A stretch of DNA of 64,000 nucleotides from Promethearchaeota archaeon (GTDB taxonomy: Archaea; Asgardarchaeota; Lokiarchaeia; Sigyniarchaeales; SOKP01): contig JBHLNF010000008.1 in NCBI GenBank assembly GCA_048937405.1, positions 1 to 64,000 of the forward strand. The letters are read 5' to 3'. The position numbers and the translations under genes were made by a program. Under the pieces are notes generated by a model that was not told where the DNA came from, did not search any database, and was given only the letters and a program-made list of their open reading frames with translations. Each line of letters starts with the position of its first letter. The first letter of the stretch is position 1. Positions 16,359 through 19,498 of this stretch are shown here, one piece after another.

Positions 16359-16697
16359 TTATAAAAAGTCATTTGAATTAAAACGATAAGCTGCTCTGGT
16401 TAGTCCCACATAGTTATCACTAATCTTATAATACATTTTACCATTAACTATTTTTTTCTGTAAATAACTATTTTTTATTGTGTGATTTAATCCATGAATC
16501 ATAGTACCTAAAGTAACTGCTCCAATATACTCATGTTGTTTTTTTGTAATTCTTATTAATTCCAGTTCAGAATGCCATTGACCATCGAGAAGTGCTATAA
16601 GTATCTCGTTTTTTATAGGAGTTTTAATATCTTTAATTTTATTGAATAGATTAGAATAACTTGGCTTATAAAAGCTTTTATTATCGAGATTTGTCAT
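16359..16697 (-). CDS. Small hypothetical protein, probable winged helix
   Basis: EILIALLDGQWHSELELIR helices followed by a KKIVNGKMYYKIS wing-like hairpin; basic. Confidence 0.6.
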   Translation of the reverse strand: MTNLDNKSFYKPSYSNLFNKIKDIKTPIKNEILIALLDGQWHSELELIRITKKQHEYIGAVTLGTMIHGLNHTIKNSYLQKKIVNGKMYYKISDNYVGLTRAAYRFNSNDFL

Positions 16698-16815
16698 AGT
16701 TTATAATACCTTTAAAAGAAGTTCTTATATTATGAATAGATATTAAAATTTCCTATATAACAAAATGTAATATCTTAATGTTATAGGGATATTTTCAAGA
16801 TGTTAGTATGAAATA

Positions 16816-17937
16816 TTAAAGGAGGTTTGGAGGGATCCCCTCATTATAAAATTTTGCTCGTGTTATCCAGTTCTGAGAAAATTCTGGAATCATTGCTAGA
16901 ATTGATCCTCCAATCCATACAGAAAACGTTCGCTCCATAGGAGCGATAATTCTTATAACCTGATTTTTTTTCTTTCTTCTTGCTAATTCTATTTCTAATT
17001 CTTGATAGATACGTGATTTCAAATTAGGAAACATAGAGGAACCGCCTGAAAGAAAAATATTATTTAATAATTCAGGGCGGATATCTACGTCACAGTTCTC
17101 AATTACATCCATAATGGCTATATGTAATGCATCTTCCTCTACCTCTGAGGTAGGATTAAATAATATTTCTGGTACAATAAATCGCTCTTTATTAAGAGAA
17201 ATTGTAGATCCATCTGGTAATGAATATTCTTTTTCATACTGCTCACTTCGTTTAAGATCTTCTTTGTAATCTAATGAAATAAAACATGCTTTTTCTTTTA
17301 GAACTCTTGCTAATTCTCTACGTATTGAAGAGTCAACAGACCATCCAATTGATTCTAGAACTTGTTCCATATGTCGAGTTAAAAATCTTCCCCCTATATC
17401 TAAGATACGTACCGCATGTTCTAATTTATATCCTTCATAAATAGGAACTATTCTTGTATTACTATCGCCAATCTCAACAATTAATCCTGTTTGAAAACCC
17501 CCAGAATATAGAGTTAGCATGGAATCTAAAACTGGATAAAATGACATACATTGATAACGTTCTAAGAATAATTCAAATATTTTCTCTAAATCTTTATATG
17601 GAAATAGAGGATGTACAGCAAATAAAACATTAACAAGTGTAGGATCTACTCTAAGGTTATAGAAAATATAATCAATTATATTCGCAAAATGAGTCCAATC
17701 TACAACAATTCCTTTTTCAATTGGATGAAAAATTTTATATAATCCTATTGATTGAATTTCATCTCCAACATATATCTCATTTTCACGGGAACTTTTAGAT
17801 TCATAATCTACACTTACATTTTGATATTTTGGTTTACCAACCATTGTTAAAAAAACTTGACTAGGAGAGTCTTCTCCTGCAAATCCAATTTTTGAAGAAA
17901 ACTGCCCAATATCTAAAACAACTGTTAAATTTCCCAT
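16816..17937 (-). CDS. Actin-related protein (Asgard actin family, divergent)
   Basis: VLDIGQFSSKIGFAGEDSP, YVGDE, PIEKGIV, VPIYEGY, LKEKACFI, YSLPDGSTI, ERFIVPEILF, CDVDIR, LSGGSSMFP, SVWIGGSILA: colinear with actin over 373 aa. Confidence 0.95.
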   Translation of the reverse strand: MGNLTVVLDIGQFSSKIGFAGEDSPSQVFLTMVGKPKYQNVSVDYESKSSRENEIYVGDEIQSIGLYKIFHPIEKGIVVDWTHFANIIDYIFYNLRVDPTLVNVLFAVHPLFPYKDLEKIFELFLERYQCMSFYPVLDSMLTLYSGGFQTGLIVEIGDSNTRIVPIYEGYKLEHAVRILDIGGRFLTRHMEQVLESIGWSVDSSIRRELARVLKEKACFISLDYKEDLKRSEQYEKEYSLPDGSTISLNKERFIVPEILFNPTSEVEEDALHIAIMDVIENCDVDIRPELLNNIFLSGGSSMFPNLKSRIYQELEIELARRKKKNQVIRIIAPMERTFSVWIGGSILAMIPEFSQNWITRAKFYNEGIPPNLL

Positions 17938-18199
17938 TGGTTATTATGATCTAAATTATTATATAGATAAGTAGCCTAAACAATTATATCTTATATATTA
18001 TTTTAATAGTAAAAAAAAAATATTTACTTTTTAAGTAGAAAATCTTTAAAAAACAGCACAAATCAAATTTGAATATTCGCATAGTCATAAAAATTCTTTG
18101 AAAACTTGTAGAAATTTATATTAAAAGAATAAGACTAGAAATTTAAAAAATAGAATAAGGAAAAGTAGATTATTATTCAAAAAATATGTAAAATAGAAC

Positions 18200-18901
18200 T
18201 TATTCTCCTCTCATAATTTTCTTTAAACGATTTAATTCGTCTAACATTTCATCACGAAGAGATCCTAATCCACCACCTTGTTGTGGGGCTATTGCTGGTG
18301 CTGCTGGACCAGGAGGTCTTGGAGGTCCACCACCAGGGGGACTTGGTCTCTTTGCAAATGCAGTTGGTGCCGCAGGAGGGCCTGCACTTGAGGGACTACC
18401 AGGTGCTTTAGGGGGTCCACCAGCGGGAGGTAATTTCGGTGCAGGAGGCAAACTTGGTTTCTTTGGAGGGCCTGCACTTGAGGGAGTACCAGGTGCTTTA
18501 GGAGGTCCACCACTTGGAGGAGCTGCTGGAGGGCCTGCCTTTTTGGGAGGTCCACCACTTGGAGGAGCGGGAGCTGATGGAACAGCAACGGTAGGAGCTC
18601 CTGTAGGTGTAGATGCTGGAGTGGCACCTCCACCACTACTTAATAAACTAAATAGAGTACTAGCTGCCGCAGTTTTTGCACCTTCACTTGTTGGTGCTAC
18701 GATTTTTTTAGAGGAAGTACTTACGGTTTGAACTTCTTCAACAACTGAAACATCCTTTAAATCCTTTTGAGCTTTAGCTAAAGATTTAATAAAATCATTA
18801 ATTCCTTTAATAGTTTCTTCTAGATCATCAGCTAAAGAAGTTAATCCTTTTTTCATAAAATTAATAACTCTTTCAACTTTTTTCTGTTCTTTTGAGACCA
18901 C
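18200..18901 (-). CDS. Coiled-coil / proline-rich protein with C-terminal WH2- or VASP-like helix; putative actin regulator
   Basis: N-terminal amphipathic helix of about 50 aa; about 110 aa rich in P/G/A with GGPPK and AGPP repeats; tail GGGLGSLRDEMLDELNRLKKIMRGE; GTG start with upstream GAGG. Confidence 0.65.
   Translation of the reverse strand: MVSKEQKKVERVINFMKKGLTSLADDLEETIKGINDFIKSLAKAQKDLKDVSVVEEVQTVSTSSKKIVAPTSEGAKTAAASTLFSLLSSGGGATPASTPTGAPTVAVPSAPAPPSGGPPKKAGPPAAPPSGGPPKAPGTPSSAGPPKKPSLPPAPKLPPAGGPPKAPGSPSSAGPPAAPTAFAKRPSPPGGGPPRPPGPAAPAIAPQQGGGLGSLRDEMLDELNRLKKIMRGE
18375..18568. repeat. Intragenic direct repeats encoding the Pro-rich units
   Basis: 48-nt copies at 18375-18422 and 18465-18512 (2 mismatches); GGAGGTCCACCACTTGGAGGAGC at 18501 and 18546. 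Confidence 0.85.
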
Positions 18902-19201: not shown

Positions 19202-19498
19202 ATGCCTAAACGTGAACTCTTCATAATAGGCTTAACATATCGTTAGGTTTGTGAAAAAAGGGTATATGAAATTGTAAATGAACTTAAAATCCCTCTTATA
19301 GACGAAAGAGTCTATGATAAAGTAAGTTTCAGTACAGGCTCAGCCATAGCCTCTGTAATCTTCAGATTTGAGGAAGATGAATCAGTTATCCGTGGCTTTC
19401 TAGGTCTGGCAGAATATTTCCACACTGTTGTAATTAAGAAGAAGGATGAATTCTATATTCCCCATTCCAGTATTTTATTCAAATTGGAAAGTGCTTAA
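19202..19498 (+). CDS. Small ORF absent from the ORF track, with an in-frame TAG at codon 15 (readthrough, nonsense allele or alternative start)
   Basis: GGTGA at 19189 then ATG 19202; MPKRELFIIGLTYR*VCEKRVYEIVNELKIPLIDERVYDK...FKLESA*; 83 open codons after the TAG, followed by a T-run. Confidence 0.55.

Follow-up and report, generated by a model that had tools for sequence, protein, structure and literature searches.

A sequence-defined family of Pro-rich proteins with a near-invariant terminal helix, encoded beside an actin-related protein gene in one family of Asgard archaea

Does a Pro-rich protein encoded next to an actin-related protein (ARP) in an Asgard archaeon act on actin, or does its gene merely lie there? 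The question is raised by a stretch of 64,000 nucleotides (nt) from Promethearchaeota archaeon (assembly GCA_048937405.1, contig JBHLNF010000008.1, positions 1 to 64,000 of the forward strand), hereafter the window, in which genes for a Pro-rich protein, an ARP and a small winged-helix-turn-helix (wHTH) protein follow one another on the minus strand. A preliminary description, made from the window alone, had proposed a dedicated ARP with its cognate activator, the latter being a WASP/VASP-like factor. We know of no nucleation-promoting factor (NPF) or elongation factor in Asgard archaea. Our analysis favours another reading, to which we give a probability of about 0.5: the Pro-rich protein would be a tethering adaptor with an invariant docking helix, putatively paired with a protein of 88 amino acids (aa), here called the companion, whose gene lies on the other side of the Pro-rich gene. 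The Pro-rich family is older and more widespread than the ARP, and the two genes are neighbours through inherited synteny at the level of a family.

A family of Pro-rich proteins in several Asgard classes

More than 200 homologues of the Pro-rich protein were found, exclusively in Asgard archaea; each is annotated as hypothetical, and no Pfam domain is assigned to any of them. The Pro-rich gene is single copy in its own genome. We denote taxonomic families by f-numbers, f1 being the window's own family and some of the others belonging to other classes of the phylum. A profile of the Pro-rich family was positive in 166 of the 399 genomes of the phylum, with 116 of 133 in f1 and 14 of 14 in f3; matches also came from f4, f5, f7 and f19, and weaker ones from f9, f27 and some other families. 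The four-part build of the protein recurs in distant loci of f3, f4, f5, f7, f19, f26 and f27. Judged by sequence, the protein is a member of an undescribed family that spans several Asgard classes. The member in the cultured Lokiarchaeum ossiferum (genome G138) is encoded between UYP44327.1 and UYP44329.1, a position from which it should be UYP44328.1. By an approximate mapping, based on a near-constant offset between two series of ids, it should be close to GNAMCCOK_00620 and the ARP close to 00414-00419; none of these ids occurred in the portion covered of the Lokiactin co-immunoprecipitation sheet (bioRxiv 10.1101/2025.11.30.690169, Supplementary Table 2), an absence to which we attach no weight.

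The protein consists of a Pro-free amphipathic head (residues 1-55), a 114-residue tract with 37% Pro, and a Pro-free tail of 25 residues. The succession of a helical head, a Pro-rich arm and an amphipathic helix at the end is thus real, in line with the preliminary description. In an alignment of 20 members, the head, the short motif AKTAAASTLFSLLS, LPPAPKLPP and FAKRP in the Pro-rich spacer, and nearly the whole tail were invariant. L83 and L87 of AKTAAASTLFSLLS were invariant also in 16 diverse members, and the motif was seen in the f3, f5, f7, f19, f26 and f27 forms. The tail, GGGLGSLRDEMLDELNRLKKIMRGE, kept 21 of its 25 positions among the 20 aligned members, with the pattern GGGL.SLRDEML.EL.RLKKIMRG, and its consensus across classes was [GS]L[RK]xEM[LM]xE[LI]x[RK][LI]Kx[IL][MF]. 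The length of the Pro-rich tract varied by insertions and deletions among homologues, and its Pro runs were only 2-4 residues long. Contigs from DNA sequencing runs of two studies matched this repeat-rich gene without a difference, so the gene is not an assembly artefact. In metagenomes of related strains, contigs join across 84-201 nt of the tract (window positions 18277-18685). These joins fit the idea that GPPKA-type repeats are often gained and lost, although the sides of the joins, at only 20-24 nt, make this weak evidence.

Searches outside the family returned little. Against Pfam, the N-terminal domain gave only sub-threshold generic helical matches. When 1.84 billion representatives were searched exhaustively with a profile of this domain, only 46 clusters came up, nearly all of 160-270 aa. 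Larger or otherwise-built relatives were not among them, apart from one TIR fusion and some giant coiled-coil proteins, the latter apparently matched by chance. The fusion (P0267, 549 aa, a single cluster) has a transmembrane segment, the complete Pro-rich module with an internal copy of the tail, GGGLGSLRDEMLTELDRLKGIMRG, and, last, a TIR domain (PF13676, 65.9 bits); either a genuine fusion or a run-on of the gene call may explain it. No longer proteins with the same tail were found in the search made for them, which is weak evidence. The ESM Atlas held no usable match to the Pro-rich protein, and the Atlas's own model of it had a predicted local distance difference test score (pLDDT) of 0.52. 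Sequence searches of the PDB with the Pro-rich protein and with the wHTH protein returned chance-level rows only. The tail sequence was not found in the papers searched, and a literature search found no description of an Asgard NPF- or VASP-like protein.

Conserved neighbours of the Pro-rich gene

Across 20 loci retrieved with wide flanks, the companion gene was the only neighbour of the Pro-rich gene that was conserved across families, at least six in number. The two are immediate neighbours in almost every f1 locus and also in f5, f7, f19, f26 and f27, where they may be divergent, tandem or convergent; in genus g15 of f3 they are 3 kb apart. The phyletic patterns of the two match: both are absent from the large families f13, f15, f16 and f18. 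The predicted structure of the companion has a pLDDT of 87 and the topology alpha-beta-beta-alpha-beta-beta-beta, a fold for which we found no clear match (best E value 0.23 with Foldseek against the PDB; best Z 4.2 in a wide VIA-align search). In the atlas, only partial matches inside large proteins were obtained, and a feature search returned the companion's own cluster alone. This overlooked neighbour is the gene to study alongside the Pro-rich gene.

In the window, the companion gene carries an in-frame insertion of 30 nt at about 19225-19254, with a TAG at 19244-19246, where relatives read MPKRELFIKRVYEIV uninterrupted. Loci L016 (genome G176) and L033 (G229, of another genus) have an equivalent insertion of different sequence, and companion matches that contain a stop or are shortened at the N-terminus were obtained in other genomes too, G198, G183, G204 and G270 among them. 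The insert can be folded into a hairpin of 11 bp (z -3.2), in which three pairs differ between genera by compensatory changes; a 6-bp helix formed by the two exon sides closes the hairpin, and both junctions fall in an internal loop. Again, the DNA contigs of two studies carry the insertion. Because the open reading frame (ORF) downstream of it is intact and conserved, removal at the RNA level, as a putative mini-intron that is not a canonical bulge-helix-bulge, seems likelier than a pseudogene.

The ARP gene is a close neighbour of the Pro-rich gene in f1. In f1 loci with 1.5-kb flanks, it was downstream of and co-oriented with the Pro-rich gene in 25 of 29; among the other four it lay about 2 kb further away in three and on another contig in one. 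In the wide f1 loci, which come from five further genera, the ARP was downstream in all and the full trio was present in six of seven, with spacings of 0.2-6 kb; in the seventh (L054) the ARP was cut by the edge of the locus and the wHTH gene lay beyond it. The flanks of the trio are kept as well, with topA (topoisomerase IA) in 6/7 loci, a phosphoribosyltransferase gene in 5/7 and more distant genes in 4/7. Since all of these are also syntenic in f1, the order of the trio reflects general synteny rather than special preservation of a cluster. Distances of 44, 100 and 273 kb separate the Pro-rich gene from the ARP orthologue in three closed genomes of f3. The order is kept throughout f1, and the adjacency of the Pro-rich gene and the ARP is lost outside it.

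The distribution of the ARP is also narrower. Its clade, single copy, was found in 115 of 133 genomes of f1 and 12 of 14 of f3, and it was absent from all 12 genomes searched of f2, f4, f5, f6 and f7. Because the Pro-rich family, with the same tail, occurs in families that lack the ARP, the ARP cannot be the obligatory partner of the tail. The proposal of a dedicated ARP with its cognate activator is not supported by these results: the Pro-rich family occurs without the ARP clade, the genes are far apart in f3, and the order in f1 is that of a generally syntenic region.

The reading that we favour centres on the tail and the companion. The amphipathic N-terminal domain would serve as an anchor or an oligomeriser, the Pro-rich tract of variable length as a flexible arm, and the invariant LPPxPKLPP in this arm possibly as a ligand site. 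The near-invariant terminal helix would dock on a partner present in every lineage that carries the family; a partner of such distribution is called for because the tail is invariant and widely distributed. Lokiactin or the ARP, Vps4's MIT domain and the companion itself are candidates for this docking. As the constant genomic neighbour, the companion, rather than the ARP, would be the likeliest working partner of the Pro-rich protein. The ARP would be a younger actin paralogue, confined to two families, that joined the neighbourhood in the ancestor that f1 and f3 have in common; its adjacency to the Pro-rich gene would have persisted in f1 alone, within the syntenic region that includes topA, and the wHTH gene would be an addition made in f1 only.

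Several points weigh against this reading. In f1, far more than a hundred genomes have the ARP next to the Pro-rich gene and in the same orientation. The companion is single copy in the f3 genomes and lies just 8-19 kb from the ARP orthologue there; therefore the three genes may have been neighbours before f1 and f3 diverged, and this proximity is compatible with an ancestral three-gene cluster having a common function. Related genomes, moreover, do not count as independent cases. Finally, the proposed oligomerisation of the N-terminal domain is suggested solely by its amphipathic helices.

Candidate partners of the tail and the other genes of the locus

The strongest alternative is that the family is a groove-binding actin regulator of Asgard archaea, which we regard as possible but doubtful. 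The terminal helix would bind the hydrophobic (barbed-end) groove of Lokiactin and/or the ARP, like arcadin-2, WH2 or the FAB and GAB of VASP. The N-terminal domain would multimerise into an oligomeric head with several Pro-rich arms that recruit factors, the helices would sit on Lokiactin (and on the ARP in Lokiarchaeales), the companion would be a regulatory subunit, and the ARP would have been kept adjacent because it belongs to the same filament system. The adjacency throughout f1 and the closeness of companion and ARP in f3 speak for this alternative, as does the archaeal precedent of arcadin-2 in the crenactin gene cluster (PMC5173319). Moreover, Lokiactin is 82-92% identical across lineages with the invariant tail, as expected for the partner of an invariant peptide. 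Against it stand the general synteny of f1 and the retention of the tail in families without the ARP. In addition, Loki and Odin profilins have been reported as non-binders of VASP polyproline (PMC8410842).

The tail itself was compared with known actin-binding elements. No match to WH2 (PF02205) was obtained with the window protein at E values up to 1 or with 20 family members at E values up to 10, in searches whose HMMER filters may drop very weak matches. The WH1, VASP_tetra and Snf7 models likewise matched none of the 20 members. The WH2 consensus is a three-turn amphipathic helix, a short extended linker and then LKK[TV]. The tail reads EMLDELNRLKKIM, in which LKKI comes only two residues past the last hydrophobic residue of the helix (L223) and stays in the heptad pattern; the linker of 4-6 residues that WH2 has at this place is missing. 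A VCA end is missing as well: the Pro-rich protein ends in KKIMRGE and has neither a Trp anywhere nor an acidic run. Aligned by eye with the FAB of human VASP (printed in PMC10340426), the tail had 8 identities in 20 positions, and the L. ossiferum form had 10 in 20. As a control we ranked such likenesses against the proteome of the window's genome (4.47 Mb in 29 contigs; 5041 ORFs). The ungapped BLOSUM62 score of the tail against the FAB, 26, was rank 20 of 5041, and that against the GAB was rank 754. With no WH2, WH1 or VASP model match, no acidic Trp-containing VCA end and a FAB likeness that is not distinctive, the earlier reading as a WASP/VASP-like activator dedicated to this ARP is not supported in that form.

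The best non-self match of the tail in the proteome was an internal FLRDEMLNELTNLRNII in a Cys-rich protein of 151 aa (CPICG...CCNC) without a family (genome G000, contig C9, 37824-38279, minus strand; L082:4824-5279). At 2.5 kb from it, a 361-aa protein is encoded (C9, 34221-35306, plus strand; L082:1221-2306) that has a gelsolin repeat scoring 17.3 bits (cut-off 21) and a HeH/LEM-like end. That the only other tail-like motif of the genome lies so near a weakly gelsolin-like gene can be counted for an actin regulator, and it may be chance.

Less probable than actin binding, and in our view unlikely, is an ESCRT/Vps4 adaptor, in which the terminal helix would be MIM1-like and LPPxPKLPP MIM2-like, both binding the MIT domain of Vps4 or of another protein. 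The arrangement would resemble that of IST1, with a helical head, a Pro-rich linker and two MIMs. MIM1 motifs are terminal, follow a flexible linker and are acidic first and then basic. The tail is likewise terminal, lies past a flexible linker and runs from acidic to basic. It has the hexamer ELNRLK, in the same hydrophobic register, in common with the end, AELEKELNRLKSDE, of the genome's own Vps2/24/46-type ESCRT-III, which is encoded beside Vps4. From M219 onward it also fits the pattern [LI]ExE[IL]x[RK][LI]K of the ESCRT-III tails of five other Asgard genomes, as well as the looser Asgard form [LI]xxE[IL]x[RK][LI]K of MIM1, and Asgard Vps2/24/46 tails have been called MIM1-like (PMC7240154). 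Yet the likeness to the own ESCRT-III ranked 30 of 5041 for the 12-residue MIM1 core and 1110 for the 18-residue tail, GLRxEM, the most conserved part of the tail, is without a counterpart in ESCRT-III tails, and none of the 20 wide loci had an ESCRT gene beside the family. Because neither the FAB likeness nor the MIM1 likeness is distinctive in the own proteome, both are leads only. Homology of the Pro-rich protein as a whole to ESCRT-III was rejected: profile-profile comparison by hhalign with eight Asgard ESCRT-III proteins gave a probability of 10.8%, and at the N-terminus only.

The identity of the partner decides what the locus means. If the helix binds the actin groove, the family would provide the first archaeal factor of nucleation or elongation type besides profilin and gelsolin, and part of the eukaryotic actin-assembly logic would be older than eukaryotes. 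If the helix binds the MIT domain of Vps4 or only the companion, the adjacency to the ARP warns against inferring function from family-level synteny. Unannotated, conserved in several Asgard classes, present in the cultured L. ossiferum, built like a tether and, in the large lokiarchaeal family f1, encoded beside an ARP, the family is a concrete candidate actin regulator.

The ARP is a member of the actin family by Pfam (Actin, PF00022, 300 bits), with residues 5-367 aligned to profile positions 6-401 of 410. It is one of five actin-family genes in the genome, of which two are Lokiactin-like (441 and 423 bits), the ARP is third (295 bits) and two are more divergent. Its best solved relatives were conventional actins at about 270-297 bits, and its top 60 solved matches were all actins, none of them Arp2 or Arp3, in a comparison made without a tree of the eukaryotic Arps. 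It is 40% identical to the own Lokiactin and 49-51% identical to the f3 orthologues. The ARP retains the adenosine-pocket motif GGSSMFP and the WIGGSIL helix; its phosphate loop 1 reads D-I-G-Q-F (D-[IM]-G-Q-[FY] in orthologues), versus D-N-G-T-G in Lokiactin, and several groove residues differ between the two. The position aligned with Q137 of actin is D (G in f3) and that aligned with H161 is R, both kept in orthologues; these residue numbers are ones we take from the motif context of rabbit actin. With these motifs kept and both catalytic positions replaced, the ARP probably binds nucleotide, and its ATP hydrolysis is probably weak or absent.

The ARP orthologue has a different neighbour in three closed genomes of f3, that of L. 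ossiferum among them. Immediately upstream of it and in the same orientation is the gene for a Ras-family GTPase (PF00071, 138 bits; L056:5091-5681 on the plus strand, L057:7326-7895 and L058:7280-7864 on the minus strand), and a conserved zinc-ribbon protein of 452-494 aa is encoded divergently alongside. This pairing may be more informative on the function of the ARP than its neighbourhood in f1.

The third protein had been described as small and wHTH-like, and its model agrees. At a moderate pLDDT of 63, the predicted topology is H-b-H-H-b-b (H1-b1-H2-H3-b2-b3), that of a winged helix. The best 50 rows of a Foldseek search were nearly all wHTH DNA-binding proteins, at template modelling scores of 0.45-0.6 and a best E value of 1.7e-3; the top ones, at 0.5-0.6 and E values of about 2e-3, were all of the ArsR/SmtB type. 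It had no sequence family matches, and none of its 262 homologues had a Pfam domain. By the searches run, the wHTH family is specific to f1; f3 gave only a weak match, which falls within a protein of 394 aa encoded 5 kb from the ARP. Two genomes of genus g11 have a tandem pair of wHTH genes downstream of the ARP (L053:9132-9905 and L055:9234-9976). That the ARP and the wHTH protein form a functional pair, either a ParM/ParR- or TubR-like link of DNA and filament or an ARP with its local transcription factor, and that the Pro-rich gene is an unrelated neighbour, is improbable: the wHTH gene does directly follow the ARP in six of seven wide f1 loci with topA conserved convergent to it, the protein is basic, and TubR and AspA, which bind centromeres, appear in its fold matches amid many ArsR-type regulators, but the family was not found beside the ARP in f3, confidence in the model is no more than moderate, and the TubR and AspA rows are of little weight because ArsR-like folds are the commonest small regulators.

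The ORF list agrees with the preliminary description in that three co-oriented genes for proteins of 233, 373 and 112 aa are present, with intergenic gaps of 262 and 118 nt (Table 1). They are real genes and at most a putative unit. The oligo-T runs and the TATA-like box in the first spacer suggest an archaeal terminator and promoter, and thus separate transcription units.

Table 1. Position of the features of the locus in the window
Feature	Position	Strand	Remarks
Pro-rich adaptor-like protein gene (P0001)	18200..18901	-	233 aa, GTG start, 23.0 kDa, pI 10.0
N-terminal amphipathic helical domain, about residues 1-50	18752..18901	-	hydrophobic moments 0.63-0.66, the highest in the protein; strongly conserved
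Short conserved motif AKTAAASTLFSLLS, residues 76-88	18638..18676	-	general form L-[FIL]-x-[LMF]-L-[STG]-G
Pro-rich spacer of variable length, residues 95-208	18278..18619	-	37% Pro, no acidic residue
LPPAPKLPP, residues 151-159	18425-18451	-	invariant in 20-member alignment
Gly run and C-terminal amphipathic helix GGGLGSLRDEMLDELNRLKKIMRGE, residues 209-233	18203..18277	-	hydrophobic moment 0.48
Spacer between Pro-rich gene and ARP gene	17938..18199	-	several oligo-T runs, the longest T11; TATA-like box some 27 nt upstream of ARP start codon; read from sequence
ARP gene (P0002)	16816..17937	-	373 aa, 42.9 kDa; Pfam Actin
Winged-helix-like protein gene (P0003)	16359..16697	-	112 aa, basic, pI 9.6; from model and fold matches
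Small alpha/beta companion gene	19202..19498	+	divergent from Pro-rich gene; 88-92 aa in relatives; 30-nt insertion at about 19225-19254

Comparison with known systems

The ARP of the window is orthologous to a known Asgard ARP. Its best match in L. ossiferum, about 50% identical, is UYP44126.1, which is listed as an ARP in PMC9834061; in the same study, Lokiactin transcripts were several-fold above those of the other actin homologues, and UYP44126.1 was among three ARPs with lower levels. That f3 gene, however, follows the Ras-family GTPase gene and not the Pro-rich gene.

Like the MIM1 tail of ESCRT-III and the MIM2 plus MIM1 tail of IST1 (PMC7240154), the Pro-rich protein ends in a Leu-rich helix after a flexible, Pro-containing linker, and it has ELNRLK. 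It differs in having neither an ESCRT-III core nor ESCRT neighbours, and its GLRxEM is absent from ESCRT-III tails. With WH2, including the LKDV motif of the Asgard two-domain gelsolins (PMC9433394; bioRxiv 10.1101/2025.11.30.690169), the tail has in common an amphipathic helix followed by LKK and a hydrophobic residue, whereas its LKKI lies within a continuous helix and is not embedded in a gelsolin protein. Ena/VASP proteins consist of EVH1, a Pro-rich region and EVH2 with GAB, FAB and a tetramerising coiled coil (PMC10340426). The Pro-rich family resembles them in the succession of a Pro-rich tract, a Gly run and a FAB-resembling amphipathic helix, acidic and then basic, and in a helical region that may multimerise. 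The family has neither EVH1/WH1 nor a tetramerisation domain, however, and its sole long helical region is N-terminal, not C-terminal.

Arcadin-2 of Pyrobaculum is an archaeal system for comparison: its last 17 residues bind the hydrophobic groove of crenactin with a Kd of 31 nM, as seen in a crystal structure (PMC5173319). Groove binding was measured there, whereas the Pro-rich family is known from sequence alone. The Pro-rich family also differs in its long Pro-rich arm, in having another constant neighbour and in occurring without the ARP, and it is adjacent to an actin homologue in f1 only. What the two have in common is a small archaeal protein encoded beside an actin homologue, with a C-terminal amphipathic helix after a flexible region, which is the working part of arcadin-2.

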